Source of the DNA: Bacteroidota bacterium
GTDB taxonomy: Bacteria > Bacteroidota > Ignavibacteria > UBA10030 > UBA8401
Length of the DNA stretch: 64,000 nucleotides
Assembly (NCBI GenBank): GCA_040751955.1
Contig: JBFMFY010000001.1
Coordinates: forward strand, 244-64,243
Direction: 5' to 3'
The notes below the pieces were generated by a model. That model worked only from the letters and a program-made list of their open reading frames with translations, was not told the origin of the DNA and ran no database searches. Position 1 is the first letter of the stretch. Each line of letters begins with the position of its first letter. This document shows positions 5,391 to 64,000 of this stretch, piece after piece. The position numbers and the translations under genes were made by a program.

Positions 5391-5407
5391 TTTATCAGGA
5401 GTATGTC

Positions 5408-8988: not shown

Positions 8989-8989
8989 C

Positions 8990-27764: not shown

Positions 27765-27846
27765 ATTGCTTGACCGGAAAAAATTGTGGAACTTGAAGCC
27801 GTCGCTCGCAACATCTGCAATCAATTCTTAAAAAGCAAAGCACGAA

Positions 27847-29664
27847 ATGAAAATAATTCTTCACCTTCTGCTACTAACACTTTCTCTCAAAAGCCAGACC
27901 GCTTTTCGATTTGCACACATTTCCGATACTCATATCGGAAGCGCTACAGCGGCGGAAGATTTGCGGCGGACAGTGCATGACATCAACTCTCTTGGAAATA
28001 TTTCTTTTGCCATCCTCACCGGTGACATTACGGAATTCGGCGCTGACCATCAGCTACGGCTGGCAAAACAGATTCTGGACAGCCTGACGGTTCCGTGGTA
28101 CATCGTTCCGGGGAATCATGACATGAAATGGTCCGAATCCGGAGGGATTTCATTCTCAAAAATATTTGGAAGTGAACGGTTTGTGTTTGATCATGAAGAG
28201 TACACATTCCTCGGTCTCCATCAGGGTCCGCGCATGCGGATGGGGGATGCCTATTGGGCTACTGAAGATGTAGCGTGGCTTGATTCAGTATTGAGTGCAA
28301 TGAAAAATCCCAAACGACGATTTTTTATTGCAACACATTATCCGGCCGATTCCGGAATTGCAAATTGGGACGTGGTAACAACGCTGGTTCGCAAATATAA
28401 CATTCAGGCATTTCTCAACGGACACTGGCACAGGAATTATTTTGGCTACTTCGATGGAATTCCCGGTGTCGTGGGCAGATCGAACTTGCGCGCACGAGAT
28501 TCTGTTGGCGGTTACAATCTCGTCGAGGTACGGAATGATTCGATGATTTACTCAACGCGGATTCCGGGGAGAGAAACGAAACATCCCTGGGCAATTGTAC
28601 AACTCGGTGAACGCATTTATTTGTCCGACGGGAATATGCAAGCAAGAATCAATGCCGCATCAACAAATGTTCGTGTTGCATGGGAGGAAAGATTTCGGAC
28701 TTCCATGTCTGCTCCTCCTGCGGTGACAGATCGGTACCGAACATTTGCATTAATGGACGGTTCGGTTCATATCTACAAGGATGAGAAAAAAATTGCAACA
28801 CTCTACACACAGGCACCAATTGTAGCATCGCCGGCATTAGACAAATCCCGAATTGTCGTTGCATCCACCGACAGCAGCATTTCGTGTTATGAAATCACTA
28901 CACAAAAGATGATTTGGAAAGTGAAAACCGGTGCATCGGTTGTTGCAGTTCCGCTGATAGACGACGGTGTTGTGTATTGCGGTTCGAGCGACAGAAAATT
29001 CCGCGCGATCAATCTCAAGAAGGGCACACTGCTTTGGAGTTTTGATTCACTACAAGGTCATGTGGAAGCAAAACCGCTTATTGTCGATGAGAAGATAATT
29101 TTTGGTGCATGGGACGAGCATTTGTACTGCCTCGATAAAAAATCCGGAACGCTTCTCTGGAAATGGAAAGGAGACAAACCGGGCATTCTGTTATCTCCCG
29201 CTGCGTGTGAACCTGTCTCTGCGGGAGGAAAGGTCTTTATTGTTGCTCCTGATCGATACACGACTGCAATAGATATCATTACGGGAAAAGAAGTATGGCG
29301 CACAAACAGATTTCAAGTTCGGGAGACAATTGGGATGTCAGAAGATGGTGAAAGGGTGTACATCCGAACGATGAATGACTCGTTATACGCACTCTCAACT
29401 ATGAGCAACAAACCGGAAGTTATCTGGAATCTTCATGCGGGATTCGGGTACGATATTAATTCGGCTCAAATACGAGAGAAGGATGGCGTTCTCTTCTATG
29501 CGACCAAAAACGGGTTATTAATTGCTGTTGACGGGAAATCGGGGAGGTTGTTGTGGAAGATCAAAGTTGACAATGTCATTGCTCATACCCCAATTCCAAT
29601 TTCAAAAAACAAAGTCATATTTTCGAACATTATAGGGACGGTGTGCAAAGTAACTACAGATTGA
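27847..29664 (+). CDS. Secreted calcineurin-like metallophosphoesterase fused to a PQQ/BamB-like beta-propeller
   Basis: FRFAHISDTHIG, GDITEFG, GNHD, GHWH motifs. The C-terminal half has repeated propeller blades (VYCGSSDRKFRAINLKKGTLLW, HLYCLDKKSGTLLWKW, ...DGKSGRLLWK). Confidence 0.75.
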   Translation: MKIILHLLLLTLSLKSQTAFRFAHISDTHIGSATAAEDLRRTVHDINSLGNISFAILTGDITEFGADHQLRLAKQILDSLTVPWYIVPGNHDMKWSESGGISFSKIFGSERFVFDHEEYTFLGLHQGPRMRMGDAYWATEDVAWLDSVLSAMKNPKRRFFIATHYPADSGIANWDVVTTLVRKYNIQAFLNGHWHRNYFGYFDGIPGVVGRSNLRARDSVGGYNLVEVRNDSMIYSTRIPGRETKHPWAIVQLGERIYLSDGNMQARINAASTNVRVAWEERFRTSMSAPPAVTDRYRTFALMDGSVHIYKDEKKIATLYTQAPIVASPALDKSRIVVASTDSSISCYEITTQKMIWKVKTGASVVAVPLIDDGVVYCGSSDRKFRAINLKKGTLLWSFDSLQGHVEAKPLIVDEKIIFGAWDEHLYCLDKKSGTLLWKWKGDKPGILLSPAACEPVSAGGKVFIVAPDRYTTAIDIITGKEVWRTNRFQVRETIGMSEDGERVYIRTMNDSLYALSTMSNKPEVIWNLHAGFGYDINSAQIREKDGVLFYATKNGLLIAVDGKSGRLLWKIKVDNVIAHTPIPISKNKVIFSNIIGTVCKVTTD

Positions 29665-48644: not shown

Positions 48645-49142
48645 ATGAATCGCTTTTTTCTTTTCGGCACGGTAGTTTTGCTCGCAACGTTCACATATTC
48701 ATATTCACAGGTTGCCGTTTCCAGCGTGAAAGGAGATGCGTTTGGCACCGGCGTCCATGGATTAGGATTTTCCGGCGGACCTGCAAGCGGGGCAGGAATA
48801 AGCTACCGGTACCACACGGAAGGAAAGTCCTCACTTCAGGGGATCGTCGGCGTGTTCAAACCGAAATCGACCGATACGTTTTATTCATTCGGCGCGGAGT
48901 TTCAGCAGGACCTGACGCGGAGCAACTCGGCGAGATTCTTTTTTGCGGTTGCCAGCAGTTATGTTTTTAACGGAACCGGCACGAATAATTATTCTGCCCC
49001 ATTCCGTGCAGGTCTTGGAGTCGGAGGAGAATTTTTACTGCAGGATGCTGTACATTTTTCATTTCAGGGTCTTTTCACATATTTTTCGGACGGTACGATC
49101 CTTCCGCTTCCTCAACTGGCTGTGCATTACTATTTTTACTAA
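48645..49142 (+). CDS. Small outer-membrane beta-barrel-like protein
   Basis: 165 aa with a signal peptide, alternating Gly/aromatic beta-strand pattern and a C-terminal aromatic (..LAVHYYFY). Confidence 0.5.
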   Translation: MNRFFLFGTVVLLATFTYSYSQVAVSSVKGDAFGTGVHGLGFSGGPASGAGISYRYHTEGKSSLQGIVGVFKPKSTDTFYSFGAEFQQDLTRSNSARFFFAVASSYVFNGTGTNNYSAPFRAGLGVGGEFLLQDAVHFSFQGLFTYFSDGTILPLPQLAVHYYFY

Positions 49143-49262: not shown

Positions 49263-50954
49263 TTACTTCACCAACATCATCTTCTTTGTTTCGGTAAAGT
49301 TTCCTGCTTTCAATGTATAGAAGTATGTCCCTGCAGCTAATCCGGCTGCATCGAATGTTACTTCATGAGTTCCGGCTTCAATCATTCCTTCGTACAGAGT
49401 TCCGACCTGTTGTCCCAATGTGTTTGAAATGAACAGGTGGATATTAGATGCTTTTGTTACAGAGAACCGAATCTTGCTCGTAGGATTGAATGGGTTTGGA
49501 TAATTTTGATCCAGTTTAAATACCGCCGGAGCAGTAGTGGAGAGAGTCTTTACACTTTGTACGACGACCTTACTCTCAAGAATGATCAGTGAGACATCTT
49601 CCGGATGATCAATTCGTGTATTTGTGTTCACTATAATTAGTTCACGCCTTCCGTCTCCATCGAGATCGTTTCCAAAAGTGACATTTGGCAGTGCGTACGA
49701 AGAATCACTTGGCGCATGATATATCGTATCGAGTTTATAGCCTGTTGAATCATCATATGGCATTCCGGTTAAGTGCCGCAAACGATAAACCTTGCGGTCT
49801 GAACCCCAATCGCCGATAAAGAAATCGACCTCGCCGTTCCCGTCAATATCGCCAATGTCTGCACCCTGAAAATTCAAGTTAAGCGGAGAGGTAAGCCACT
49901 TTGTGTTTGCCGCAGTCAACGTGGAAACATCGTTCGTATTACCGACGTAAAACACGGCGCTCGGTGTGCTGACCTGACCTGCAATAAACATCTCTAACTT
50001 GCCATCCTTGTTCGCATCGTAGAAAGCAACGCTGTTTTGTTCGCCGTAGTCATCTGGATTTGTTATTTGATTAATATCTGCCTGTAAAGAATACGTGTTT
50101 GCACCGGTTGCTTCATACACTGCATACGTCAACATGTCCCAGGTAAATCCCCAGATTTCTTTTTTGCCGTCACCGTCAAAATCTACAACGTGATTGTTGA
50201 AGTAGTATCCCCCATTGAATGTGCCGATCGTATCGGCAAACTCAAGTTCAAACGAGCTAAACCCGGGGCTGACATCGCCGAGTAATCGATAAATGAACAG
50301 CGGACGCGTGGATGCAGAGAGGGAACCATTCCCGTACGATCTGCGTGCGCTTGTAATCAATTCAACCTCACCGTCACCATCCACATCATCAGCAACAATG
50401 CTGGTAATTGCATGGTAATAAAAATCTCGGAATCCGAGATTGGATATCATCGTCGGCTCGCTCAGGAAATTGCTCGAATCGGTGTCGTACTCATAAATAA
50501 AAACCCTTCCGGGATTCGGATTCCCGGTCGAGCGTGCATCGGATGGGAGTCCAAAAATAATTTCCTGCTTAGTATCTTTGTCAAGATCTCCGACAGTCAA
50601 GCAGGGCCACGATCCTTCTACGGTGTTCTGCGGCGGAAGCTGTGCGCTCCAAACGAGAGCATACGTATTATTGCCGGTTGCTTCAAACCGAAGGATTCGT
50701 GCCATGGTTGTATCGGAAGATGTTGTTGCCGGATCAACAATAACCAAGAATTCTTTTTTTCCATCGTTATCCAGATCATAGTTCGCATACACTCGCCATG
50801 CAGCAACATCATCCGGCCATTGTGCATAATCGCTCGGTTTAAATTGTGCCGACAAGGAAAAGTTTGCAGTGTCAATGTATGCCTGTGCAAATCCGACGTG
50901 AGATACGCACAGTGTCACTGCCAATACAAAGATCGCAGTACAAAATTTTTTCAT
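49263..50954 (-). CDS. Secreted FG-GAP/VCBS-repeat (integrin-alpha-like propeller) protein with a T9SS CTD
   Basis: Repeated Ca-binding loops DLDNDGKKE, DVDGDGEVE, DFDGDGKKE, DANKDGKLE, DIDGNGEVD, DLDGDGRRE. CTD FKLDQNYPNPFNPTSKIRF...KKMMLVK. Confidence 0.8.
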   Translation of the reverse strand: MKKFCTAIFVLAVTLCVSHVGFAQAYIDTANFSLSAQFKPSDYAQWPDDVAAWRVYANYDLDNDGKKEFLVIVDPATTSSDTTMARILRFEATGNNTYALVWSAQLPPQNTVEGSWPCLTVGDLDKDTKQEIIFGLPSDARSTGNPNPGRVFIYEYDTDSSNFLSEPTMISNLGFRDFYYHAITSIVADDVDGDGEVELITSARRSYGNGSLSASTRPLFIYRLLGDVSPGFSSFELEFADTIGTFNGGYYFNNHVVDFDGDGKKEIWGFTWDMLTYAVYEATGANTYSLQADINQITNPDDYGEQNSVAFYDANKDGKLEMFIAGQVSTPSAVFYVGNTNDVSTLTAANTKWLTSPLNLNFQGADIGDIDGNGEVDFFIGDWGSDRKVYRLRHLTGMPYDDSTGYKLDTIYHAPSDSSYALPNVTFGNDLDGDGRRELIIVNTNTRIDHPEDVSLIILESKVVVQSVKTLSTTAPAVFKLDQNYPNPFNPTSKIRFSVTKASNIHLFISNTLGQQVGTLYEGMIEAGTHEVTFDAAGLAAGTYFYTLKAGNFTETKKMMLVK

Positions 50955-51119: not shown

Positions 51120-51148
51120 TTGACATAATTCCGATGTGTAGTTATATT
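51120..51148 (+). promoter_or_regulatory. Near-consensus sigma70-type promoter for receptor module 1
   Basis: TTGACA (51120-51125), 17-nt spacer, TATATT (51143-51148). It lies inside the track's 5' ORF extension, which supports the downstream ATG at 51236. Confidence 0.55.
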
Positions 51149-51235
51149 CTTTGGGCAAGCGAACACAAATCACTATTACTTCTAATAGCCGGTACCATAA
51201 TTCTCCCAACGTTGTTCATTCTTATCAGGTATGCC

Positions 51236-53899
51236 ATGAACGCTGCAATACTGCGATTTTTTGTGTTATCTAGTTTCATTACACTTTCCTTCACATATGC
51301 CGGTACGACGGGAAAAATTTCGGGAACGATTACCGATGAAAAAACCGGTGAAGCAATCGTCGGCGCCACTGTACTTATCAACGGCACAACTATTGGCGCT
51401 GCAACCGATGTCGAAGGTAACTTCGTCATTTCGAATCTTTCCCCGAATGTATATTCCGTCTCCATTTCAGCAATTGGGTACAGGAAACAATTGATTCAAA
51501 ATGTTCAGGTGAATGTCGATCTCACAACGCGGCTGGATGTCAGGATGTCGTCAGAAGCTGTGGACCTTGAGGCAGTCGTGGTAACAGCAGAGAAACCGCT
51601 GGTACGGCGTGATCTCACATCGTCGCAGACAAATGTTGATGCAAGCCAGATCAGGGCTCTTCCGGTGGAAAGTATCACCGGCATTTTAACGACGCAAGCG
51701 GGTGTCATTCAGGATGCGGGCGGCGCTCTGCATTTCCGCGGCGGAAGATCGGATGAAGTTGCATACACCGTCAACGGATTGTCGGTGAACAATCCGTTCA
51801 CTAATACGAACAGCTTCAGTATTGCCACCAACGCCATTCAGGAACTCTCCGTTATGCAGGGAACATTCAACGCGGAATACGGCAACGCGTTGAGCGGCGT
51901 TGTCGAAGCGGGATTGAAGGAGGGGGGAGAATCGTACACAGGTCAACTGACATTTTACGCCGGAAGCAGAGTGAGCACTCATAACAATATTTTCCTTAAT
52001 ATCGATAAAATAAATTTCAACGATCTTATTTATGAAGCTACATTTGGCGGACCAGTTCCTTTGACGGATAATGCGCTGACATTCTTCATCTCATCCAGAT
52101 ACAATGACGACGGCGGATACCTGTACGGCAAACGGGAACACATGCCGTTTGACAGTTCGTTTTTCTATGCCGATAAGCCGTGGGTGATCACTCGTTCCGG
52201 CGACGGACAATATGTTGCGATGAATAATTCAAAGTCGCTTACGGCAACCAACAGGTTCAGTTACCGCTTGACACCGACTACAAAAATCGGATATGATTTC
52301 GTCTTCAACGAATCGAAGTACAGGAATTATAACCACAGTTTCCGGTACAATCCGGACGGCATCTACAATAATTTTGAAAACGATGTACTCCATGCGCTTG
52401 AATTTTCTGACGTCCTATCCAGCACCACATCGTTCAAAGTGAAAGCGTCATACGCACGCAACAGATACGAACAGTACCGATATAAAGACCTCAGACAGGA
52501 CCACTACGCTCCCGAAGAGTTCCTCCGTGTTCCATCAGCGGCAAGTTTTTACTACGGCGGTTCGCAGAACGGAATATTTGAACGCGTTGCAGAGACATAT
52601 TCCTTGAAATTTGACGGTGCCAGTCAGATATCTTCCAAGCAGGAAGTTAAAATCGGTGCCGAAGCGAAATTCCCTCAGATGAAACAATTGAGCTACACAG
52701 TGCTTCGGGATACGGTAAATTTTCTTTCACCGACATTGCCGAACACAGCAGATTCACGGTACAACAGCTATGCCCGGTTTCCAAAGCAAATTTCGGCGTA
52801 CGGACAGACAAAGATGGAATTTGAAAGTATCATCATGAACCTCGGATTGCGGTACGATTATTTTGATGCCAACAGTATTACTCCGGTGAATATCAATTAC
52901 CCGAAAGGACCGAAGAAGTCATCAACCGTTAAGCAGACTGTTAGTCCTCGTATCGGCGTTTCATATCCCATCACTGAACGGGGGATTATCCATTTTTCGT
53001 ACGGACATTTTTTCCAGATGCCGCAGCTGAGAAGGTTGTATGAAAATCCCGATTTCAAATTCAATCCGGGGTCAACCGGTTCTACATTCGGCAACCCGAA
53101 CCTCGAGCCCCAAAAAACCGTAACGTATGAATTCGGACTTCAACAGCAACTGACGGAAGATCTTGCATTCAACGTTACCGGTTTCTACAAAGATATCCGG
53201 GACCTTTTCGCGACACAGACTATCCGCGTCAGCGGCGACACAACCATTAATGTCTATGTAAACAAGGATTATGGAAATGTTAAGGGATTGACATTCTCTT
53301 TGACTAAACGAAGAAATGCTTCCGACATCGTTGCATTTACGGTTGATTATACATTTCAGACGGCAGAAGGAAATGATGTGAGTGCCGATGCATTTTTTCT
53401 TGACACACAATCAGGTAGAGAGAGTGAAAAGACCGTTGTGCTGCTGGACTGGGACCAGCCTCATACTTTAAATGCGACACTGTCTGTCGGCAAATCAAAT
53501 GACTGGAATGTAAGCCTTATCGGTAAAGCAGGAACAGGGCAGCCGTACACGCCGTTTGTCGGGGAGAATCAAGTCGTATTGAAGCGGAACACGGGACGAA
53601 AGCCATTCACAACCACTGTTGATCTGCTTGCACAGCAAGAGTTCTCCTATTCATCACTGGCGATCACCGTGTTTCTAAAAGTCTTCAACCTCTTCGATGC
53701 GTTAAATGAACTTGTTGTGTATGACGATACCGGCAGATCTACCTACACGCTCGCGCCGAACCGCGGAGAAGGAAAATCAACTCAGCAGCAGTTTGAATCC
53801 GGAACAGACGGCGTTCGGAGTATCTATGAATATTTTTCCAACCCCGGTCTCTACTCATCGCCCCGCTCTGTGATGATAGGACTCAGCGTTGGTTTCTAA
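51236..53899 (+). CDS. TonB-dependent-receptor-like outer membrane protein (CarboxypepD_reg-like N-domain, plug, barrel), module 1
   Basis: AGTTGKISGTITDEKTGEAIVGATV..., AVVVTAEKP, LHFRGGRSDEVAYTVNGLSVNNPF, NLEPQKTVTYEFG, C-terminal ..IGLSVGF. Confidence 0.88.
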   Translation: MNAAILRFFVLSSFITLSFTYAGTTGKISGTITDEKTGEAIVGATVLINGTTIGAATDVEGNFVISNLSPNVYSVSISAIGYRKQLIQNVQVNVDLTTRLDVRMSSEAVDLEAVVVTAEKPLVRRDLTSSQTNVDASQIRALPVESITGILTTQAGVIQDAGGALHFRGGRSDEVAYTVNGLSVNNPFTNTNSFSIATNAIQELSVMQGTFNAEYGNALSGVVEAGLKEGGESYTGQLTFYAGSRVSTHNNIFLNIDKINFNDLIYEATFGGPVPLTDNALTFFISSRYNDDGGYLYGKREHMPFDSSFFYADKPWVITRSGDGQYVAMNNSKSLTATNRFSYRLTPTTKIGYDFVFNESKYRNYNHSFRYNPDGIYNNFENDVLHALEFSDVLSSTTSFKVKASYARNRYEQYRYKDLRQDHYAPEEFLRVPSAASFYYGGSQNGIFERVAETYSLKFDGASQISSKQEVKIGAEAKFPQMKQLSYTVLRDTVNFLSPTLPNTADSRYNSYARFPKQISAYGQTKMEFESIIMNLGLRYDYFDANSITPVNINYPKGPKKSSTVKQTVSPRIGVSYPITERGIIHFSYGHFFQMPQLRRLYENPDFKFNPGSTGSTFGNPNLEPQKTVTYEFGLQQQLTEDLAFNVTGFYKDIRDLFATQTIRVSGDTTINVYVNKDYGNVKGLTFSLTKRRNASDIVAFTVDYTFQTAEGNDVSADAFFLDTQSGRESEKTVVLLDWDQPHTLNATLSVGKSNDWNVSLIGKAGTGQPYTPFVGENQVVLKRNTGRKPFTTTVDLLAQQEFSYSSLAITVFLKVFNLFDALNELVVYDDTGRSTYTLAPNRGEGKSTQQQFESGTDGVRSIYEYFSNPGLYSSPRSVMIGLSVGF

Positions 53900-53930
53900 A
53901 ATAACGGAACAATCAATGTCTATCAATTCT

Positions 53931-56900
53931 ATGAAAAAGATCTGTACGCTTATCGTTCTCGGCTCATCGTTGGCGGTATCGCAATGGTCACAAGAACAAC
54001 GCAATGAACAAGAGCAGATCGCTCGCGCAATCCAGCAAGCAAGTCTCACCCAGCCCCGTTCAACGTCGCGCCTCGAAAACCGTGCAAAAGATTTCGGCTC
54101 TGTTCCGATGTGGAAATCCGCATCGCAAGCGGACAGGAAATATTTTTTGATGAACGGGAATCAGATCGTCGGAAATATTTACAATTACGGCGGCATCGCT
54201 CCCGGCGACGGATTGACACGACACGTCAATAACATGGTCTGGAGAGGTTTGGGAGACATCTATCAATTTGGTCCGTTGGTTGCGGCAGAAGTGATCGACA
54301 CATCGGGGAAGAAAGTTCAAATATCATCCGATGGCATCAATGATAGTTACGCTCGCGATTTCAATCCGGCAAACAATACAATTCTATATTCCTGGCAACC
54401 TCTCCCGGAGTATGCCGATCCTGCGTCGCCGGTGATGGCATCAAGCGGAGCCGGAGATATCAGTCCGCAGGACGGCAAACCGGACAGCTGGCCCCGTCAA
54501 TGGTACAACCCTTCAAAAGGTGAATATGTATGGCCCGGATATTTGCGGCAGGATGTACCGAATGCAGACCTTGAAGTGTTGTGGGGGATGGATGACAGAG
54601 AAAACGATGAGTTCGCATATTTTCCGTTCGGATATGATACGATCGATGCAACGATCAACAAACCGATCAGAGGGCTTGGTGTAAAAATTGAAGGACGTGC
54701 ACTGCAATGGAGCAATGCACTGGCGCAGAACACGATATTCTTTGTCTATACGGCACAGAATTTCAGCACGCGCGATTTATCCGACGTTCACTTTGGAATG
54801 TACGGAGACATTGATGTTGGTGGAGGTTCACCGGAGAATCAGGATGACCTTGGTTTTTTCATCTCACCTCTAGATACGGTAATACGAGGAACTACGATAC
54901 CGATTCCGCTCTACTCCCGCAACCTTGTCTATCTGTGGGACAATCCGCCGGGTATTGGTGAATTGGGTTTAAAAACCCATTACACCGGCTGTAAATTTTT
55001 GGAGAGTCCGGGAAATCCGAACGATGCAAAGGACAACGACGGCGATGGGTTGATCAATGAAAGCCAAACCAATTTGATTGATGACGATGGTGACTGGCGT
55101 GTTGCATCCGATGACGTCGGTATCGACGGCGTACCGGAAACAAATGACTTAGGAGAAAAAGACGGGATGCCGACCCACGGTGTAAAACTTGCAGACGGTA
55201 CGGTTGATCCACTTCGCCCGGGCGAACCAAACTACGAATTGACAGACCTTGATGAGTCCGATCAGATCGGGTTGACTTCATTTAGAAGCTGGCGGTGGAC
55301 AGAGCGACGGTTACGGGACGATGACCAAACATGGAACATCCTTGATTCGGGTTTTGTGGATAATTCCATTCCCAATTACAGCGATGTGATATTCCTCTAC
55401 GGTTCGGGACGGATACGGTTGAATAAAAGCGGTACGGATGGATCGATCAAAAGATTTTCAATTGCACTCTTAATGGGCGCCGATCTGAACGATCTGTTGA
55501 CATCTGCACAGACAGTGCAACTGATCTATAATCAGAATTATCAGTTTTATCGTCCGCCAGATAAACCGACTGTTTATGCAGTACCGGGGGACAGAAGAGT
55601 GACGCTCTACTGGGATGACATAGCTGAAAGCAGCGTTGATCCCGTGGCGGGAAAAGATTTCGAAGGGTACGTCATTTACCGCAGTACTGATCCGCAATTC
55701 TCAGACATCAATACCGTCACAGATGGGAAGGGAACTCCGACCCTTTATGAAGCACTCAAGAACGGAGTCGGCACTGAAGCACGATTTGATATTGCATTTC
55801 GCAACGAACCGTTCACCGATATTAATGCCAATGGTAAATTTGAATCGGGCGAGCCATACAACGATGTGAATTTGAACGGACGATGGGATGCGAGCATTGA
55901 AGATTATTGGAAAGGATATTCACCCGTTCCATATGGAAACAGGGGTGTCCAATATTATTTAGGTGACAATACCGGGCTGGTGCACATGTACGTCGATTCC
56001 AATAATGTCATCAACGGGCAGACATACTATTATGCCGTTGTTGCATATGATCATGGTGACTCGACGAAAGTTCCACCGACAGAGACTACAAAGCGGATCA
56101 ATATTGATCCGATCACATCGCAGTTGGTATTCGATGTCAATACGGTGCGTGTAGTACCTGGACCACGTGCAAGCGGATACATTCCGCCGAAGTTCACTTC
56201 TGTGAATGGCGTCGATCATACTGTCGGAACAGGTACAGGAAAAGTAACAGCAGTATTTATCGACGATCTTGCAGTGAAGGATAACATCAGCTATACTGTT
56301 ATGTTTAGTGATACGTTACGAACTGGAAATCAAAAGACAGCTACTCTCAATTACTCGGTGCTTAAAGTGACTCCTACCGAATCTGAAGTAACGCTGCTTG
56401 ACACGAACAATGTCAAAATCGGTAATGCGCATATTCTAAAAGATGATATATTCAGAGTGACGCACGCCGCTACCGGGCAATCGTATATCGACAATGTCGA
56501 TTTTGTCATAGATACAGCACTCGGGTACATCAGAAAAACAATTAATGGTGCAATGGCAGGCAGCAAAGGACCATACAAGATACGGTATCGTTATCTCGCA
56601 CAGCCGCCAAGCACATTGTTAAACAATGAGGAGGCGAATCCAGTATTCGATGGAATAAAAATTTTTACTGAAAATAAGTTGCTTGCGGTAAGCTTAACGA
56701 AGAGCAATTGGCTTATTCATAATAAAAAATTAAACTTTAGAATATTTCCTCCAAGTATTGGCACGTTAAAGCTTGCACCAATTGATTTTCAGATCCAATT
56801 GAAAAGTTCTGACACTTTGGCGAACGGGATGTACGCACAGCCAGGGGACACAGCCTATAATATTTTCTTACAGAAAGTTGTTCAGACTCCGTTCATATTC

Positions 56901-57518
56901 AAAAATATCACAGATGATACAGCTAGAGCAAAGTTGCCATTTAGGGTGATTGTTAAAGAAGATCAAAATGGGAACAAAAAATGGGATATTTCAGAGGCAA
57001 TAGTCTTTTTAACGCCGGCTCCTTACGGTTCCGGTACAAACACCCATGCTGAAGTTCGATTTGAGTTTGCTGATACAGCAAGTAAATCTTTTGGCGGCGA
57101 AGTGTTTAATTTATTGACGGAGCAACCGTTTACATCCGTGGATAAATTCACGTTTACGACCCGTGCTGCGCAATATAATCCAACTGATGCAGCCACATCT
57201 CTTGATAAAATTAAAGTCGTTCCTAATCCGTACGTCGCGGTCAATGAGATTGAACCGACAGACCGATTACCCGGGACGACACGTGGAAGCCGGAGAATTT
57301 ATTTTGAGCATCTTCCACCGCAATGCACGATCCGCATCTATACAATAGCAGGAGAGTTGGTGAAAGAGATTCATCATGCAACAGGGATAGACAACGGACG
57401 TGAATACTGGGATCTGTTGAACAGAGACAATCTCGGCGTTGCATACGGTGTTTACATCGCACATATAGATGCTCCCGGCGTCGGCGAACGGATATTGAAA
57501 TTTGCGCTCATTAAATAG
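53931..57518 (+). CDS. Giant secreted protein of unknown function: DxDxDG Ca-binding-like repeats, FN3-like domain, divergent T9SS-like CTD (module 1 partner)
   Basis: Start moved to the ATG at 53931 (signal peptide MKKICTLIVLGSSLAVSQW). DNDGDGLINES, DDDGDWRVASDDVGIDGV. FN3-like PPDKPTVYAVPGDRRVTLYWDD..DFEGYVIYRS...YYYAVVAYDHGD. C-terminus VVPNPYVAVNE...IRIYTIAGELVKE...YWDLLNRD..GVYIAHI..KFALIK. Confidence 0.8.
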   Translation: MKKICTLIVLGSSLAVSQWSQEQRNEQEQIARAIQQASLTQPRSTSRLENRAKDFGSVPMWKSASQADRKYFLMNGNQIVGNIYNYGGIAPGDGLTRHVNNMVWRGLGDIYQFGPLVAAEVIDTSGKKVQISSDGINDSYARDFNPANNTILYSWQPLPEYADPASPVMASSGAGDISPQDGKPDSWPRQWYNPSKGEYVWPGYLRQDVPNADLEVLWGMDDRENDEFAYFPFGYDTIDATINKPIRGLGVKIEGRALQWSNALAQNTIFFVYTAQNFSTRDLSDVHFGMYGDIDVGGGSPENQDDLGFFISPLDTVIRGTTIPIPLYSRNLVYLWDNPPGIGELGLKTHYTGCKFLESPGNPNDAKDNDGDGLINESQTNLIDDDGDWRVASDDVGIDGVPETNDLGEKDGMPTHGVKLADGTVDPLRPGEPNYELTDLDESDQIGLTSFRSWRWTERRLRDDDQTWNILDSGFVDNSIPNYSDVIFLYGSGRIRLNKSGTDGSIKRFSIALLMGADLNDLLTSAQTVQLIYNQNYQFYRPPDKPTVYAVPGDRRVTLYWDDIAESSVDPVAGKDFEGYVIYRSTDPQFSDINTVTDGKGTPTLYEALKNGVGTEARFDIAFRNEPFTDINANGKFESGEPYNDVNLNGRWDASIEDYWKGYSPVPYGNRGVQYYLGDNTGLVHMYVDSNNVINGQTYYYAVVAYDHGDSTKVPPTETTKRINIDPITSQLVFDVNTVRVVPGPRASGYIPPKFTSVNGVDHTVGTGTGKVTAVFIDDLAVKDNISYTVMFSDTLRTGNQKTATLNYSVLKVTPTESEVTLLDTNNVKIGNAHILKDDIFRVTHAATGQSYIDNVDFVIDTALGYIRKTINGAMAGSKGPYKIRYRYLAQPPSTLLNNEEANPVFDGIKIFTENKLLAVSLTKSNWLIHNKKLNFRIFPPSIGTLKLAPIDFQIQLKSSDTLANGMYAQPGDTAYNIFLQKVVQTPFIFKNITDDTARAKLPFRVIVKEDQNGNKKWDISEAIVFLTPAPYGSGTNTHAEVRFEFADTASKSFGGEVFNLLTEQPFTSVDKFTFTTRAAQYNPTDAATSLDKIKVVPNPYVAVNEIEPTDRLPGTTRGSRRIYFEHLPPQCTIRIYTIAGELVKEIHHATGIDNGREYWDLLNRDNLGVAYGVYIAHIDAPGVGERILKFALIK

Positions 57519-57528
57519 AGTGACTGCC

Positions 57529-58545
57529 ATGAACAAAATATTCTTTATTGCTTCTATCATTATCGCTTGCACTTCCGTCGCGTTGGCACAACAAGCATCC
57601 ATAACCAAAACGGGAACGACGGCTGCGCCATTTTTGAAGATCGGTGTCGGTGCGCGGTCGATTGGAATGGGGGGAGCGTATGCTGCTGTTGCCAACGATC
57701 TTTCAGCCATGTACTGGAATCCTGCGGGTCTCTCGCGGTTGACCACAAATGAAGCGGCATTCAACCACATTGATTGGATCGCTGATATTAAATTTGATAT
57801 GGCGGCAACCTCAATACTCATTAATGAAGTCGGCACCATCGGCGCAAGTTTCACTACATTAAATCTTGGCGAAATGGAGGTGACGACCACCGGTGAGCCG
57901 GAAGGAACAGGGGAGCGGTTTTCTGCCGGAGCAACAATGATCAATCTTTCGTACGCCAGAAATCTTTCGTACAAATTTTCGATCGGATTTAATGTGAAGT
58001 ACATCAGCGAATCCATTTGGAACATGCGTGCACAATCCGTTGCGCTTGATTTTGGAACGTTATACACTGCCGATATTCTGAACGGTGTTAACCTTGGTGC
58101 AAGCATGTCAAACTTCGGACCGAAGATGCGTTTAGAAGGACGCGACAATTTGGTGCTCATTAATACAGGTGCCGGAGGAAAAAATATAATTAACGGAGAG
58201 TATGAACTCGACAGTTACGATCTTCCTTTGATCTTTCGAGTAGGTGTCTCGACCGATCTTATGCGATCGGAAAATAACAGAGTAACAGTCGCTGTTGATG
58301 CGGTTCATCCAAACGACAATACCGAATATGTGAACTCGGGTATTGAATATTCATGGGGAAGTATTGTTGCGCTCAGAGGAGGATGGAAATCAGCGTATGA
58401 ACGAGGTGGAGAACAAGGACTGACACTTGGAGCTGGTATTCACTACATATTGGCAGCGCCGGTCGATTTTTTGTTTGATTATGCCTACCAGGATTTCGGA
58501 AGGTTGAAAGAAGTCCATTATTTCAGTTTTGGTCTTCGGTTTTAA
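57529..58545 (+). CDS. porV: PorV/PorQ-family outer membrane beta-barrel (T9SS shuttle-type protein)
   Basis: Start moved to the ATG at 57529 (signal peptide MNKIFFIASIIIACTSVALAQQ). Hallmark GTTAAPFLKIGVGARSIGMGGAYAAVANDLSAMYWNPAGLS. C-terminal ..YFSFGLRF. Confidence 0.7.
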   Translation: MNKIFFIASIIIACTSVALAQQASITKTGTTAAPFLKIGVGARSIGMGGAYAAVANDLSAMYWNPAGLSRLTTNEAAFNHIDWIADIKFDMAATSILINEVGTIGASFTTLNLGEMEVTTTGEPEGTGERFSAGATMINLSYARNLSYKFSIGFNVKYISESIWNMRAQSVALDFGTLYTADILNGVNLGASMSNFGPKMRLEGRDNLVLINTGAGGKNIINGEYELDSYDLPLIFRVGVSTDLMRSENNRVTVAVDAVHPNDNTEYVNSGIEYSWGSIVALRGGWKSAYERGGEQGLTLGAGIHYILAAPVDFLFDYAYQDFGRLKEVHYFSFGLRF

Positions 58546-58559
58546 TCAGAGGTCCCGTA

Positions 58560-58588
58560 TTGATTCATCGGACAGCTTTTTCTATATT
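58560..58588 (+). promoter_or_regulatory. Near-consensus sigma70-type promoter for receptor module 2
   Basis: TTGATT (58560-58565), 17-nt spacer, TATATT (58583-58588), 48 nt upstream of the ATG at 58637. Confidence 0.5.
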
Positions 58589-58636
58589 TCTCTACACCAA
58601 TCACATCCACCACTAATTTAGAACGGATCAGATTCC

Positions 58637-61618
58637 ATGATCAAACGCTACTCTGTTCTTTATGCAACACTCTGCATCCTCATCTCCATCACTCACCTCA
58701 TAGCAGGAACCACCGGAAAGATTTCGGGAAAAGTTACGGATTCAAAAACCGGAGAAGGAATTCCATCTGCGATAGTAACAGTGATTGGCACAGCGTTAGG
58801 TGCAGCGACGGATGCAAGCGGCAACTATGTTATAGTCAACGTTCCTCCGGGTACATATTCCGTGTCTGTCAGTTATATCGGGTACCAACCGACACGCGTG
58901 AATAACGTTGGTGTGAATGTGGACTACACAACGACACTCAATATTCAACTTCGGGAATCAGCGGTTGAACTGGGTGAATTTGTAGTTGAAGGTGAGCGGA
59001 ATCCGTTGATCCGTCAGGATCAGACGAACCCGGTAGTTGCCGTGACATCGGAGAACATTCAAACTTTGCCGGTGACAAGTATCAGTGAAGTAGTCGGTCT
59101 TCAAGCAGGGGTAGTAACATCAGATGATGGGCTGTTACATATTCGAGGCGGGAGGTCGAACGAAATTGCGTACACGTTAAATGGTATTTCTGTCAATAAT
59201 CCGTATGATAATTTCAGTTCTGTGGGTGTTGCAACGAACGCAGTGCAAGAGGTGACTGTATCCACAGGAACATTCAGCGCAGAGTATGGCAATGCGTTAA
59301 GCGGTGTTGTAAATTATGTCACGAAAGAGGGAGGACAGCGTGCGTCTGGCAGTGTGCGATTGCTGACAGGAGATTACTATACAAAAAACAATGTCGTATT
59401 TCCTCACCTTAATAAGTATCAACCGTTTAATACATCACGGGCAGAGCTGACATTGGGAGGTCCGCTCGTTCTTGATGACCTTTCATTTTATGTTTCAGGA
59501 GTTTTTGACAGGAATAACGGATATCTCTACGGTAACAGGATATACCGCCCAACCGATATGTCGATTCAACCATCAGAATTTATTAAGACACTGCCTATTC
59601 TCGATTCACTTGGGAATCCATATTCGGATCCGAATACACCGGGTCAATATATTTACACAGAAGATTGGCGTCTCGATTCAAGGACAAATGCTCCATATTA
59701 CTTCAATCCCCTCGGCGGATCGATGAAGTATGCAGAAGCGTACATCCGGAACTCTAACAATCAAATAGAGAAAGTCCGTATCCAATATCCTGACACAACC
59801 GGACTGCCGACAGGTGACAGTGCATTAATTCCACTGAACACAAGTCGATCCTATAATATCCAAGGAAACATATCATACCGCATTTCATCAACGATGAAAT
59901 TAAAGTATGAAGCGGTGTATGACAATAGTGAAAGCAAGGATGCGTTTTACTATTCATACCGATACAACCCCGATGGGCGTCCCACAAATTATAGCAACGG
60001 TCTTGTTCAAACTATAGATTGGACTCACACACTGAGCAACGCAGCCTTCTATACCCTGAAGGTCTCACTGACGGATTCGGAAGACAAAACATATGCATTT
60101 GAAAATATTAACGATCCCCATTATCTGCCTTCGTTTTATCAAACGACACTTGTCAATACGAGTTTTCTGACCGGTGGTGTGTCATTGGGTCGAACATTTA
60201 GGTCAACAAAATCGTTAGGGGCAAAGGTGGATATTCAAGCGCAGATGTTTGGGAATCACGAAATTAAACTGGGGGGCGAACTTCGCCGTCATACGATCGA
60301 CTTTGAATCATATACGCTTCAATTTTACAATGTCAATAAGCCGAGTGAGATCATCGATGATTTCCAGGACGTATATCGTGACAGTGTAAAATATGCAGCA
60401 CAGATACCGGGTGTGGAAGGCGGATATACAAAGTATTCACGCACACCAGTCCAGCTGTCGCTATACATCCAAGATAAAATCGAGCTTGAAAAGTCATTCA
60501 TTCTAAACGCAGGGTTGCGGTACGAATATTTTGACCCGAGTGCGCGGTTTAATCCAAATCTCAGTGACGAGTATTCAAATCTCGGAGTTATTTTTGTTAC
60601 AAAAGGGTTGAAACCTGCAACAATCAAACATACTGTCAGCCCGCGAATCAGTATGGCGTATCCGATCACCGATCAGGGGGTCATCCGGTTTTCGTACGGA
60701 CATTTTTATCAATTGGGCAATCTGTCGCAGTTGTACAGGAATCCGAACTTCCGAGCAACCGGAACACCGACGTTTGGCAATGCCGATGTCCGTCCTCAAA
60801 GAAGTGTTCAATATGAAGTCGGCTTAATGCAAGGGCTCACCGCAGATCTCCGTTTGGAGGTTGTTGCATTTTACAAAGATGTGCGTGATTATCTTTACAG
60901 CCAAACTGTGAAAGCTGGAAAAGGTGATATTGAATATGTGATTCTTACAAATCTTGATTACGCAAACTCGCGTGGAATTACTCTTTCTCTGTTCCAACGC
61001 CGTACTCCCGGCAGTATGTTCTCGTCATCCGTAGATTATACGTTTGCGGTTGCGGAGGGGAACCGCACGGAACCGATCGACGAACTGTTCTTTAACGAAC
61101 TGTCAAAGAAATCGACCGAAACATTTCTTGTCCCGCTTGATTTTGACCGCTCGCATACATTAAACACGACATTGAACCTGACACAACCGGACGATTTCAG
61201 CATTAGTTCAACGATACGCCTGCAAACAGGATCACCGTACACACCAAGTGTACCCGCAAACTTATCGACATTGATTTCACGTTTTATTCAAAATAGCTCC
61301 GCAAAGCCGTTTCAGTGGTCGGTGGATTTGAAGGTTGAGAAGTATTTTACCATAGGAGAGTTGAAATATTCTGTCTTTGCTCTTGTTGACAATCTGTTCA
61401 ATACCGAGAATGAGATTGCAGTATATTCTACGAGCGGAAGAGCGTTGTATAACGCCAATCAAATAGCCGATCCGACCGCATTTCAGGATATTCGTTCACG
61501 GATTACGCGCGGTGATCAGGGATTGATACCGCTCTCGGCGATTGATAATTATTACGCTAATCCGCAGAATCTAAGTCGTCCGCGCCTAATTCGCTTTGGT
61601 CTCTCATTATTGTTCTGA
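58637..61618 (+). CDS. TonB-dependent-receptor-like outer membrane protein, module 2 (paralog of 51236-53899)
   Basis: AGTTGKISGKVTDSKTGEGIPSAIV..., LHIRGGRSNEIAYTLNGISVNNPY, DVRPQRSVQYEVG, C-terminal ..FGLSLLF. Collinear with module 1 at the protein level. Confidence 0.88.
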   Translation: MIKRYSVLYATLCILISITHLIAGTTGKISGKVTDSKTGEGIPSAIVTVIGTALGAATDASGNYVIVNVPPGTYSVSVSYIGYQPTRVNNVGVNVDYTTTLNIQLRESAVELGEFVVEGERNPLIRQDQTNPVVAVTSENIQTLPVTSISEVVGLQAGVVTSDDGLLHIRGGRSNEIAYTLNGISVNNPYDNFSSVGVATNAVQEVTVSTGTFSAEYGNALSGVVNYVTKEGGQRASGSVRLLTGDYYTKNNVVFPHLNKYQPFNTSRAELTLGGPLVLDDLSFYVSGVFDRNNGYLYGNRIYRPTDMSIQPSEFIKTLPILDSLGNPYSDPNTPGQYIYTEDWRLDSRTNAPYYFNPLGGSMKYAEAYIRNSNNQIEKVRIQYPDTTGLPTGDSALIPLNTSRSYNIQGNISYRISSTMKLKYEAVYDNSESKDAFYYSYRYNPDGRPTNYSNGLVQTIDWTHTLSNAAFYTLKVSLTDSEDKTYAFENINDPHYLPSFYQTTLVNTSFLTGGVSLGRTFRSTKSLGAKVDIQAQMFGNHEIKLGGELRRHTIDFESYTLQFYNVNKPSEIIDDFQDVYRDSVKYAAQIPGVEGGYTKYSRTPVQLSLYIQDKIELEKSFILNAGLRYEYFDPSARFNPNLSDEYSNLGVIFVTKGLKPATIKHTVSPRISMAYPITDQGVIRFSYGHFYQLGNLSQLYRNPNFRATGTPTFGNADVRPQRSVQYEVGLMQGLTADLRLEVVAFYKDVRDYLYSQTVKAGKGDIEYVILTNLDYANSRGITLSLFQRRTPGSMFSSSVDYTFAVAEGNRTEPIDELFFNELSKKSTETFLVPLDFDRSHTLNTTLNLTQPDDFSISSTIRLQTGSPYTPSVPANLSTLISRFIQNSSAKPFQWSVDLKVEKYFTIGELKYSVFALVDNLFNTENEIAVYSTSGRALYNANQIADPTAFQDIRSRITRGDQGLIPLSAIDNYYANPQNLSRPRLIRFGLSLLF

Positions 61619-61655
61619 CAAGTCAACGTTCGATTTGAATTAAGGAATTCACTTT

Positions 61656-64000
61656 ATGAAAAAATGTGTCGTAATATTTTTAATCGTGTTTCTTTCATTC
61701 GCGCAGGCGCAAAAAGAAAAACCGGATTTTCTTTCTATTGATGTCAAGTACTTGACGAAAGATCAATTACGTAGATACCAGGAATGGCGTGAGGAACAAT
61801 TTCGTATGCTCAAAGCGGCAGGCGATATCAACGAGGTAAAAAGTCTCATTATTCAAGGGAATAAAATTCGCTCGATTATCTATAATACAGGGGCGATTAG
61901 TAATCCGGGCGTTACAGGAAATGTGCTCGATCTTGTATGGAACGGTTTGGGTTATGGTTATGAATTCGGTCCTTTGGCGGGTGCCCGCGTTCCTCGCCCT
62001 CTCAATCCTTCCGATTCAGTCGATATTGTGATCGATGGATTTGGCGGCGCAAGCAGAAGAACCGATGACGGTGATTTCTCCGCCGATGGGGTCACGAAAT
62101 GGGGATGGCTTCCTGTTCCCGGGTATTCTGCCCCGGGCCAAAAAGATATTGCAAGTTGGGGATCTCGTACCTCTGATCTTCGAATTCGTCCTAAATCGTG
62201 GCCAGAAAGTTGGTATAATGAAATCCTCGGCGAATACGTTTACCCCTCATTCTTGGGAGGGAACTCAACCGTGCCGGATGAGGAAGTTTATTACATTGTT
62301 GACGATTCGACCGATGTCGAATTCGATTATCGTCCCATCGCAAGCGAACCGAATCACGGCGGACTTGGTCTCGACCTTGAAGTGAGGACAATGCAGTTTG
62401 CAAACCCCCTTGCCGAAGATATTATTTTCCTTGTCTATACCGCAGAAATGGATCTTCGCGCCAAAAAAATTGATCGTGTCTTTTTCGGTATGTTCGGCGA
62501 TCCGCATATCGGCGGTCCGAATAACTTTGGTGATGATGCTGCATCGTTCATTCCCGGAAAAGCGATCGGCTTACCTGCGTTTGATAACCTGCTAGAAGTT
62601 GACGGAAGAATAGTGACTCAACGCGCAAGGAATATGGTGTACAGTTGGGACCCTGACGGTAAAAGCGACCTTGCTGCTTATACACCCGGATATTTTGGAT
62701 ATAAATTTCTTGAAAGTCCAAACAACAGTGTTGATGGTATTGATAATGATGATGACGGCATAGTTGATGAAAGTCCATTCGGCGGCAAGGGAGTCTTTGT
62801 TGACGGAATTAGTCTCCCCCTGACAACCGGCATAGCTGATGTTGCAAAATACACAGCGCTCTACGGGATACCGAAACCGAGATGGGGTGGAGATGAAGAT
62901 GGCGATTGGAATAAGGAAAATGACGATGTGGGTGTGGATGGTATTGGAGGAACAAATGATTATGGAGAAGCGGACGGATTTCCATCGCAGGCATTTTACC
63001 TTGATGCCAACAGCAATGGGAAATATGATCGTGGTGAATTGTTGGATACACTTCAGAAACCGGGATGGGGATGGGCTGGATCTGAACCGAATTTCGGCTT
63101 TCGAGATGTGAACGAATCAGATCAAATCGGACTGCGAAGTTTCTGGTCGTTGAGATATGGGAATCCCAATCGGCCGAAAAACGACCAGTTGATGTACTCG
63201 TCAATGTCATCGGATATGGATACGGCGGCTTTGGCACTGTTATATCCCTATGCCCCTGAAGAAAACAAGACAGGTGATTTCATCTTTCTCTACGGTACGG
63301 GACCTTTTCCGATGGAACCGGGGCATCGAGAGCGCTTTTCGATAGCATTGTTGATGGGGGATGATCTGCGCGATTTATTGTTAAATTCGGAAACTGCGCA
63401 ATTGATTCTCGAGGCGAGTTATCGGTTTGCCCAACCGCCTCCCAAACCAAAAGTGACCGCCGTAGCAGGAAATGGAAGAGTAACACTCTATTGGGATAAC
63501 AATCCCGAAGATACACGTGATCCGTTCACCGGAAAACAGGATTTTGAGGGGTATAAAATCTACAGAAGTCAGGATTATACATTCAAAGATGTTTTCACCA
63601 TTACCGATGGTAATGGATATCCTTTCCTTGGAAAAGCTTTGTTCGACGATAAGGCGAGAAAAACCGCACAGTGGCATCGTCCCTGGACACAGGCAGAGAA
63701 GGACAAATATACCGGTGGATTTCATCCAATCGAATACCGCGGACGATTTATCAGATACTATATGGGTGAACCGGAAGATTCATCGGGTCTCAGGCACGAG
63801 TATGTTGACTCGACGGTAACCAATGGCATCACTTATTATTATGCAGTCGTTTCATTTGATCATGGCGATGATAGCCTGCAACTACCTCCCTCGGAATCCC
63901 AATCGATCATTCTGCGAGATCCGATCACACAGATATTTAAGTTCGACGTGAACACCGTTGCGGTAACGCCAAACGATAAGGCGGAGGGAACTATTAGTCC
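61656..64000 (+). CDS. Giant secreted protein, module 2 partner (paralog of 53931-57518); 3' end outside the window
   Basis: Absent from the ORF track. Hand translation from the ATG at 61656 (MKKCVVIFLIVFLSFAQAQ...) finds no stop through base 64000. It shares long blocks with the module-1 giant (FGMFGDPHIGG, YKFLESPNNSVDGIDNDDDGIVDES, NESDQIGLRSF, RFSIALLMGDDLRDLL, PKPKVTAVAGNGRVTLYWDN..DFEGYKIYRS, YYYAVVSFDHGD). Confidence 0.85.
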   Translation, partial: MKKCVVIFLIVFLSFAQAQKEKPDFLSIDVKYLTKDQLRRYQEWREEQFRMLKAAGDINEVKSLIIQGNKIRSIIYNTGAISNPGVTGNVLDLVWNGLGYGYEFGPLAGARVPRPLNPSDSVDIVIDGFGGASRRTDDGDFSADGVTKWGWLPVPGYSAPGQKDIASWGSRTSDLRIRPKSWPESWYNEILGEYVYPSFLGGNSTVPDEEVYYIVDDSTDVEFDYRPIASEPNHGGLGLDLEVRTMQFANPLAEDIIFLVYTAEMDLRAKKIDRVFFGMFGDPHIGGPNNFGDDAASFIPGKAIGLPAFDNLLEVDGRIVTQRARNMVYSWDPDGKSDLAAYTPGYFGYKFLESPNNSVDGIDNDDDGIVDESPFGGKGVFVDGISLPLTTGIADVAKYTALYGIPKPRWGGDEDGDWNKENDDVGVDGIGGTNDYGEADGFPSQAFYLDANSNGKYDRGELLDTLQKPGWGWAGSEPNFGFRDVNESDQIGLRSFWSLRYGNPNRPKNDQLMYSSMSSDMDTAALALLYPYAPEENKTGDFIFLYGTGPFPMEPGHRERFSIALLMGDDLRDLLLNSETAQLILEASYRFAQPPPKPKVTAVAGNGRVTLYWDNNPEDTRDPFTGKQDFEGYKIYRSQDYTFKDVFTITDGNGYPFLGKALFDDKARKTAQWHRPWTQAEKDKYTGGFHPIEYRGRFIRYYMGEPEDSSGLRHEYVDSTVTNGITYYYAVVSFDHGDDSLQLPPSESQSIILRDPITQIFKFDVNTVAVTPNDKAEGTIS

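Follow-up and report, generated by a model that had tools for sequence, protein, structure and literature searches.

SusC/SusD pairs serve as the marker of glycan uptake in genome and metaproteome surveys, and in other systems TonB-dependent barrels are fed by surface-exposed lipoproteins that are not SusD, as in BtuB-BtuG of Bacteroides and TbpA-TbpB of Neisseria. Here we analyzed a 64,000-nt stretch of DNA (contig JBFMFY010000001.1; hereafter the window) of an uncultured Ignavibacteria-type bacterium, which carries two tandem copies of an undescribed predicted three-gene outer-membrane unit, T-G-P, in which T is a TonB-dependent receptor, G a secreted giant protein of ~1,200 aa, and P a barrel of the PorV/PorQ family. 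We read T-G-P as a system for TonB-dependent uptake that has a surface partner and would be assembled from type IX secretion system (T9SS) parts, and in which the giant forms a family without a Pfam or NCBIfam model. The unit resembles SusC/SusD (RagA/RagB) in that a TonB transporter with a CarboxypepD_reg-type N-domain is co-encoded with a surface capture partner and occurs in paralogous modules, and it resembles the polysaccharide utilisation loci of Bacteroidota in that the T-G-P units of relatives are flanked by LacI regulators, glycoside hydrolases (GHs), and inner-membrane importers. Unlike SusC/SusD, however, T fails the SusC model, a SusD-like (tetratricopeptide repeat, TPR) protein is absent, the all-beta partner measures 1,200 aa, is no lipoprotein, and ends in a T9SS-type tail, and there is an obligatory third component, the PorV/PorQ-type barrel. 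With BtuB-BtuG and TbpA-TbpB the unit shares the principle of a surface binding protein feeding a TonB-dependent barrel, but those binding proteins are lipoproteins that travel by lipoprotein export pathways, whereas in T-G-P delivery of the partner would fall to the T9SS and its anchoring to a protein barrel.

The third component relates T-G-P to a different set of described systems. In Porphyromonas gingivalis, the C-terminal domains (CTDs) of PorZ and PorU are retained, bound to PorQ and PorV, and a review of T9SS effectors proposes that cognate PorV-like barrels shield CTDs from cleavage (PMC10202324). T-G-P is like PorQ-PorZ and PorV-PorU in pairing a PorV/PorQ-family barrel with a large surface protein that has a PorZ-like CTD, which in the known pairs is retained as an anchor (PMC10202324); it is unlike them in that G is neither PorZ nor PorU, and in that its partners are adjacent to each other and to a TonB transporter, occur in several copies, and are found in sugar loci. 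The PorP/SprF barrels that accompany gliding adhesins with type-B CTDs in Flavobacterium offer a further parallel, a dedicated PorV-like barrel encoded beside its one cargo (PMC10202324), but the tail of the giant is type-A-like, P scores with the PorV/PorQ family, and the context is not one of adhesins or motility. General Pfam and NCBIfam scans, none of them aimed at PorP/SprF, turned up no PorP/SprF match to P. Since the FadL-type barrel BamG holds a surface protein by its loops in the β-barrel assembly machinery (BAM) of Bacteroidota (PMC12578637), the barrel as anchor is already an established principle. For the trio itself we found no published description, either in genome papers or in full-text searches that covered only a minority of subscription journals, so an earlier description is possible.

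The genes of the two modules in the window are the following:

51236-53899, + strand: T1, TonB-dependent receptor, 887 aa
53931-57518, + strand: G1, secreted giant, 1195 aa
57529-58545, + strand: P1, PorV/PorQ-family outer-membrane barrel of the 14-strand type, 338 aa from ATG
58637-61618, + strand: T2, paralogous TonB-dependent receptor, 993 aa
61656 to beyond 64000, + strand: G2, paralogous giant, with the first 781 of about 1218 aa inside the window

We found that T1 and T2 align end to end with 35% identity (E 2e-169) and that G1 and G2 share 36% identity across all 781 available residues (E 2e-117), similarities that lie far beyond chance and mark both pairs as paralogs. The window stops about 440 codons short of the G2 stop codon. 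In a related locus, L001 (metagenome-assembled genome, MAG, WBUG01000001), the gene order is T-G-P-T-G-P; its first giant is 73% identical to G1 of the window, its 1218-aa second giant is 81% identical to the window G2, and a second PorV-like gene comes after it. A second P gene therefore almost certainly lies 3' of G2, just beyond the end of the window. The two P proteins, both taken from L001, are 42% identical, and together with the values for T and G this level of divergence points to an old duplication of the complete T-G-P unit, whose three genes were duplicated together. The original prediction, made on the window alone, had already proposed both paralogous pairs, with each giant gene 31-37 nt after its barrel gene and a PorV-type gene 10 nt after G1; all of its coordinates and quoted peptides agree with our reading, including the collinear blocks of the giants, and the measured gaps are 31, 37, and 10 nt. 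Its view of the PorV-type gene as embedded in a two-gene module, by contrast, has to be revised, as P is the third gene of every module in the order seen in L001.

To place the unit outside this genome, we mapped T, G, and P by BLAST in 80 loci taken from one-genome-per-species contigs, all of them from Ignavibacteria-type MAGs and together holding 94 giant genes. Where the contig left room, T was the immediate upstream neighbour of the giant 76 times out of 78 and P the immediate downstream neighbour 77 times out of 78; all three misses concern longer giant variants with extra domains that BLAST coverage missed. The same order is found in Balneolales (Natronogracilivirga), on Marinimicrobia-type contigs, and in every distant member with a long enough contig. 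T-G-P is a fixed unit across Ignavibacteria, Balneolales, and Marinimicrobia, that is, across several phyla-level lineages, and the gene order first noted in the window is conserved well beyond it, holding at practically all giant genes inspected in over 80 loci. A profile search with the giant against 1.84 billion cluster representatives (clusters at 50% identity) returned 6452 clusters at E<=1e-3, of which 912 reach E<=1e-30, with the conserved core of the family in the N-terminal ~550 residues. Among the carriers of the giant is Natronogracilivirga saccharolytica, a member of the Balneolales that is in culture; relatives occur in Gracilimonas and Balneola, and two clusters come from Marinimicrobia. 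The arrangement of modules differs by genus (tandem T-G-P-T-G-P in the clade of the window, tail-to-tail T-G-P modules in L022 and L023), which suggests repeated local duplication or inversion. A second, inverted G-P pair with an extra G fragment was observed in L028, L032, and L036.

T1 is laid out as a signal peptide, a CarboxypepD_reg N-domain, a TonB-box-like motif (EAVVVTA), a plug, and a barrel. The CarboxypepD_reg, Plug, and TonB-barrel domains exceed their Pfam cut-offs in both receptors (T1: TonB_dep_Rec_b-barrel 106.4 bits, CarbopepD_reg_2 71 bits, Plug 41.3 bits; T2: TonB barrel 96.2 bits, OMP_b-brl_4 75 bits against a cut-off of 30, CarboxypepD_reg 72 bits, Plug 41.5 bits), and between N-domain and plug we read by eye LEAVVVTAEK in T1 and LGEFVVEGER in T2. 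With a plug and a 22-strand barrel, T1 and T2 are predicted TonB-dependent transporters. By the same profile comparisons they are not SusC-type: on the SusC model TIGR04056 T1 scores 90 bits where 368 are required, in a match that covers the N-terminal ~130 residues alone, and T2 has no match to this model. No SusD-family lipoprotein was found beside T, where the 3' gene is the giant, a protein with no Pfam or NCBIfam match and no lipobox. The proposal of a SusCD-like uptake machine without SusD draws support from the sugar loci around distant trios described below, but its transporters are not those of the Sus type.

For P1, the NCBIfam family model PorV_fam (NF033709) scores 227.9 bits against a cut-off of 90 and aligns residues 30-338 to model positions 1-326, and the Pfam model PorV scores 45 bits. 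The two equivalog models are missed, with 95.8 of the 250 bits needed for PorV and 93.5 of the 220 bits needed for PorQ. Because P1 passes the family cut-off and falls below both equivalog cut-offs, it represents a separate PorV/PorQ subfamily, a predicted member of the family that is neither PorV proper nor PorQ proper. Its sole relative in the PDB is PorV of F. johnsoniae (6h3i_F, E 8e-14). We considered a FadL/OMPP1 transporter as another identity for P1 and rejected it, given that Toluene_X/FadL reaches 20.3 bits (E 2e-4) where 29.7 are needed. The PorV-type identity put forward for this barrel from the sequence of the window is in this respect well founded.

The giants matched no family in Pfam or NCBIfam, and a profile built from 63 giant sequences found nothing in the PDB sequence set; a match to a well-characterised family, which would have spoken against the original prediction, did not occur. 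We therefore turn to the predicted structure. An AlphaFold2 model of G1 (mean predicted local distance difference test, pLDDT, 80; predicted TM-score, pTM, 0.72) shows the following parts, all on the + strand:

Residues 1-20: Sec signal peptide, followed in the model by a helix and a disordered linker
Residues 66-545 (nt 54126-55565): predicted beta-supersandwich N-domain with acidic loops
Residues 360-447: acidic, poorly structured stretch with DNDGDG and DDDGD motifs
Residues ~547-745: predicted fibronectin type III (FN3)-like sandwich with a long insertion
Residues ~751-1085: predicted variable Ig-like stalk of several sandwiches
Residues 1095-1195 (nt 57213-57515): divergent T9SS-type CTD, a terminal sandwich in which the loop 1102-1119 is disordered

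Foldseek with full-length G1 gave low-TM multi-domain matches only (PorZ, complement, fibronectin; all TM <= about 0.25), the best of them PorZ 5m11 with E 5e-6 and TM about 0.1. As this search was uninformative, the N-domain was modelled separately (pLDDT 81, pTM 0.80), and it matched the N-domains of GH116 beta-glucosidase, GH94 cellobiose/chitobiose phosphorylases, dextran dextrinase, GH38 mannosidase, and cyclic glucan synthase, and also mutarotases, YidC P1, and copper amine oxidases. For GH116, GH94, dextran dextrinase, and GH38 the Foldseek probability was 0.98-1.0, with a query TM-score (TMq) of 0.31-0.38 and E-values of 2e-4 or weaker. The N-domain of the giant thus reads as a carbohydrate-binding-type fold, on a modest match of a model that says nothing for catalysis; the (alpha/alpha)6 catalytic domains of the matched enzymes are absent from the giant. 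Among orthologues, mean identity to G1 is 0.62 in the N-domain, 0.67 in the acidic loops, 0.73-0.78 in the FN3-like domain, 0.33-0.39 in the Ig-like stalk, and 0.75 in the CTD. The stalk is also exchangeable, as Reg_prop propeller repeats take its place at the C-terminal side of some distant members, one of which (P0141) matches PorZ positions 588-672 with E 1.6e-8. The putative capture head appears modular as well. A giant variant of 1490 aa (L012 6462-10916, P0010; also P0009) has an added N-terminal propeller of the BNR/sortilin type (PF14870, PF15902). The description of the giants as FN3 and calcium-binding proteins rests on the structure model and the acidic DxDxDG-type motifs, and neither part has a Pfam match. 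A role of the giant as a PorU-like sortase or metalloprotease was rejected: HExxH occurs in neither giant (for G2, in the part inside the window), PorU/C25 matches are confined to the tail, and an M6-like model is likewise restricted to the tail, in line with the lack of a HExxH or C25 catalytic motif reported for the window before.

The link to the T9SS comes from the CTD of the giant. The last 100 aa of G1 have no Pfam match even at E<=1. The domain keeps features of the local canonical tails (a VVPNPY start, the core strand pattern, and a terminal Lys) and carries a conserved ~20-residue insert after PNPY (residues 1102-1121), disordered in the model. Aligned by hhalign to a set of eight canonical tails, drawn from the window and from related loci, it reached 73% probability (E 3e-5). 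We then scanned 29 giant tails in isolation, with the eight canonical tails as control, and although all matches of the giant tails are sub-threshold, their pattern differs from that of the control: the CTD part of the PorZ model was matched by 29/29 giant tails (best E 8e-6) versus 2/8 canonical tails, Por_Secre_tail (TIGR04183) by 20/29 (all below cut-off, best E 1.3e-3) versus 8/8, and the CTD part of PorU by 18/29 versus 8/8; the tail of a T9SS-dependent M6-like protein was matched by 25/29 giant tails. Since canonical tails match PorU throughout but PorZ rarely, the preference for PorZ alone is specific to the giant, and similarity to the PorU tail was discarded as a discriminating argument. 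By these comparisons the tail of the giant is a relative of type A outside the curated family, with the PorZ CTD as its nearest curated model. The giant itself was rejected as PorZ or PorU, given tail-only matches of 15-20 bits wherever a score was listed (19 bits against a cut-off of 260 for PorZ; the cut-off for PorU is 420), and G1 has no propellers in its model and no C25 peptidase region. The source records of some Balneolales homologues call them 'T9SS type A sorting domain-containing protein'. The suggestion that the giant is delivered by the T9SS is in part upheld, in that its CTD is recognised, though by profile comparison only and below the standard T9SS tail models.

Sugar-related genes surround the trio in distant relatives, in which we observed the following:

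L092: LacI, GH16-PA14, and an ABC importer upstream, then T-G-P, a hypothetical gene, GH16, and GH30
L089: GH16 and GH30 beside T-G-P
L085 (Natronogracilivirga): a tailed protein, LacI, and a tailed alpha-amylase
L090: LacI directly upstream of T-G-P
L084: tailed GH18/GH85 and NamZ
L086: MFS and ROK kinase

Distant T-G-P trios lie in regulated carbohydrate loci. The modules of the window are flanked by housekeeping genes and an ABC-2 exporter, and around the 80 Ignavibacteria loci, searched for sugar genes, the only recurrent neighbour is an FG-GAP cargo gene, the rest being housekeeping genes. In the window this gene is divergent from T1:

49263-50954, - strand: FG-GAP beta-propeller protein, 563 aa, with a canonical T9SS type-A CTD

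Its product passes the Pfam cut-offs for FG-GAP_3 (67.8 bits) and Por_Secre_tail (34.8 bits). Homologues stand directly upstream of T in 40 related loci, on the same strand in 32 and divergent, as in the window, in eight, and an FG-GAP/CTD gene is also found near the Marinimicrobia trio. The FG-GAP protein is probably a fourth, accessory component of the T-G-P system.

On this evidence we propose, with a probability of roughly one in two, that the T9SS carries the giant out, that the cognate PorV/Q-like barrel retains it, and that in this position the giant collects substrate for the transporter. T, G, and P would cross the inner membrane via Sec, as suggested by their signal peptides, with an Ala-Gln type cleavage site in G and P. 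Having no lipobox, the giant cannot reach the surface as a lipoprotein and would instead be carried over the outer membrane by the T9SS via its divergent CTD. From the precedents set by PorQ-bound PorZ and PorV-bound PorU, and from the proposed protection of tails by their barrels (PMC10202324), we infer that this CTD is neither cleaved nor swapped for a lipid anchor, and that it may dock on the co-encoded P as a dedicated anchor. Raised on its Ig-like stalk, the giant would then present the supersandwich, the acidic (probably Ca-binding) loops, and the FN3-like domain, and capture a polymer, most likely a glycan; T, as its family membership suggests, would import the substrate or its fragments with TonB energy, and the neighbouring FG-GAP propeller protein would probably act as a further surface binding protein. 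T-G-P would in that case be functionally analogous to SusC/SusD (+SusE/F) where a lineage or locus makes no use of SusD, and the tandem modules, old paralogues, would differ in their substrates. Thousands of divergent clusters and several copies per locus form the pattern of substrate-specialised uptake systems. The wider claim we make more tentatively, at somewhat under even odds: that T-G-P is a widespread, unrecognised class of uptake machine in the non-Bacteroidia part of the Fibrobacteres-Chlorobi-Bacteroidetes (FCB) group (Ignavibacteria, Balneolales, Marinimicrobia), in which the retained CTD of the giant is permanently plugged into a dedicated PorQ-like barrel, so that a stable three-protein complex couples the T9SS to import and replaces the SusD lipoprotein.

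Several observations weigh against this proposal. No carbohydrate-active enzyme lies beside the modules of the window or beside most of the 80 Ignavibacteria orthologue loci, and the G1 orthologue group is conserved class-wide like a housekeeping gene; with no sugar genes next to it, this pattern would also suit a more general role. The N-domain matches its fold relatives modestly (TMq < 0.4), and YidC and copper amine oxidases, neither of which binds sugars, have the supersandwich too. The tail of the giant stays below every curated T9SS tail threshold (TIGR04183, PF18962), and its high conservation does not set it apart: the FG-GAP cargo, too, has a canonical tail that is better conserved than its body (0.48 versus 0.30), for which reason we dropped a CTD more conserved than the body as a discriminating argument. 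Finally, Melioribacter also has a true SusCDE set (PMC3534657), so T-G-P is not simply a substitute for a missing SusD.

How P acts is the point on which the nearest competing explanation turns. The original prediction had seen in it a locus-encoded PorV-type shuttle, and P could be such a shuttle of the PorV kind, picking up the giant at the T9SS translocon and delivering it to a sortase that cleaves the CTD and leaves the giant anchored to lipid or lipopolysaccharide, or released, as a binding protein or enzyme for T. P stands equally near PorV and PorQ, its sole solved relative is the shuttle PorV, local canonical tails and the giant tail have core motifs in common, and PorV-like helpers that serve a specific cargo, PorP/SprF for instance, have been described (PMC10202324). 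We nevertheless consider this explanation unlikely. If P were a general PorV, it should serve type-A cargo of every kind; that each locus strictly pairs one P with one G favours a stoichiometric partner over a transient shuttle and fits a stable PorQ/PorZ-like anchor better; moreover, the tail of the giant is a distinct subtype, with its conserved 20-residue insert and, as its nearest model, PorZ, whose tail is retained. The trio could also be no nutrient system at all, but a lineage-specific part of the T9SS or of the surface-assembly apparatus, with G and P as a PorZ/PorQ-like attachment pair and T as a structural or export partner. The best full-length Foldseek match of G1 is PorZ, the PorZ model is matched by all giant tails, Reg_prop repeats occur in distant members as they do in PorZ, P0141 matches PorZ, the G1 orthologues spread class-wide without nearby sugar genes, and a FadL-like barrel holding a surface protein is an essential subunit of the Bacteroidota BAM (PMC12578637). 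Yet the fold match has a TM of about 0.1, the PorZ similarity is restricted to the tail, and the PorZ and PorU models remain far below cut-off (19 versus 260 bits). Machinery is usually single-copy, whereas here we see tandem modules and thousands of divergent clusters; distant members sit inside regulated sugar-utilisation loci; and T has the plug and the TonB-box-like motif typical of importers. We regard a part in surface assembly as more doubtful than the shuttle.

An outward-acting T is the least probable of the explanations weighed here, and we give it very little credence. The Myxococcus TonB-dependent transporter Oar reportedly acts outward for the protease PopC, and T might in the same way export the giant, with P as a FadL-type channel for a hydrophobic substrate. 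In T2 the OMP_b-brl_4 match (75 bits, cut-off 30) stands together with CarboxypepD_reg, a combination that we take to be an Oar-like transporter architecture, and P has its weak match to Toluene_X/FadL. However, the T9SS-type tail of the giant already accounts for its export, the FadL model stays below cut-off while the PorV/Q model is strongly passed, a plugged 22-strand barrel is unlikely to let a multi-domain beta protein of 1,200 residues pass, and the sugar-locus context points to import. A small part of the probability we leave to explanations outside this set.

If T-G-P works as an uptake system with a T9SS-delivered partner, in place of SusCD or alongside it, the polymer uptake of Ignavibacteria, Balneolales, and Marinimicrobia, which occur in abundance in sediments, bioreactors, soda lakes, and the dark ocean, would have been overlooked or labelled 'hypothetical' in SusCD-based surveys. 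It would also be the first case of a T9SS cargo as an integral partner of a TonB-dependent transporter, and it would widen the role of PorV/PorQ-type barrels from secretion shuttles to general anchors of surface proteins, in parallel to BamG. As the giant family has cultured carriers (Natronogracilivirga, Gracilimonas, Balneola), these ideas are directly testable.

Elsewhere in the window, further genes bear on the T9SS or on the cell envelope. Canonical T9SS type-A tails are found on four window proteins, which suggests that the organism has T9SS cargo and uses type-A tails heavily; none of the T9SS core genes SprA and PorKLMN lies within the 64 kb. Besides the FG-GAP protein, the tailed proteins are listed here, two of the three having amidase-like (AmpD/CwlD-type) regions and one a VIT domain:

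5387-8056, + strand: T9SS type-A-tailed protein
8972-10945, + strand: T9SS type-A-tailed protein
41930-44095, + strand: T9SS type-A-tailed protein

At 853-3993 (+ strand) we observed a 1046-aa TPR protein with matches to YbgF/CpoB, to BamD, and, at 86 of the 250 bits required, to the C-terminal part of the PorW/SprE models, which could be a divergent PorW-like T9SS lipoprotein or a plain TPR scaffold. The gene at 25305-27824 (- strand) encodes an 839-aa protein with a polysaccharide-deacetylase C-terminus and a weak cellobiohydrolase-like stretch, and it adjoins a gene at 27847-29664 (+ strand) for a 605-aa PQQ/BamB-like propeller protein; both are possible envelope or polysaccharide-processing genes. 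Near the modules, a 165-aa open reading frame at 48645-49142 (+ strand) has no Pfam match and occupies the same place after the ABC-2 transporter genes in L001.

Each module also has its own promoter-like site, as had been noted for the window together with the shared -10 hexamer TATATT, and both sites are present:

51120-51148, + strand: TTGACA-17-TATATT of module 1, 88 nt upstream of the T1 start, with 11/12 consensus matches
58560-58588, + strand: TTGATT-17-TATATT of module 2, in the 91-nt gap between P1 and T2

The sites are kept in relatives. Both hexamers, with a diverged spacer, recur upstream of the T1 orthologues in L004, L006, L009, L012, and L038, and the orthologous P1-T2 gaps of L004 and L012 contain TTGACA-17-TATATT at -76 and -82. 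Under a strict definition the motif stands upstream of 15 of 74 T genes, with 18 occurrences in all across 1.18 Mb of loci. One promoter per module is a reasonable reading, and together with the gaps of 10-37 nt inside the modules it indicates that each module is an operon; along T1-G1-P1-T2-G2 the gaps measure 31, 10, 91, and 37 nt, the 91 nt lying between the modules. Bacteroides promoters are of the TAnnTTTG type instead; in this Bacteroidota-related lineage we observed that a near-consensus promoter of the sigma-70 type is conserved.

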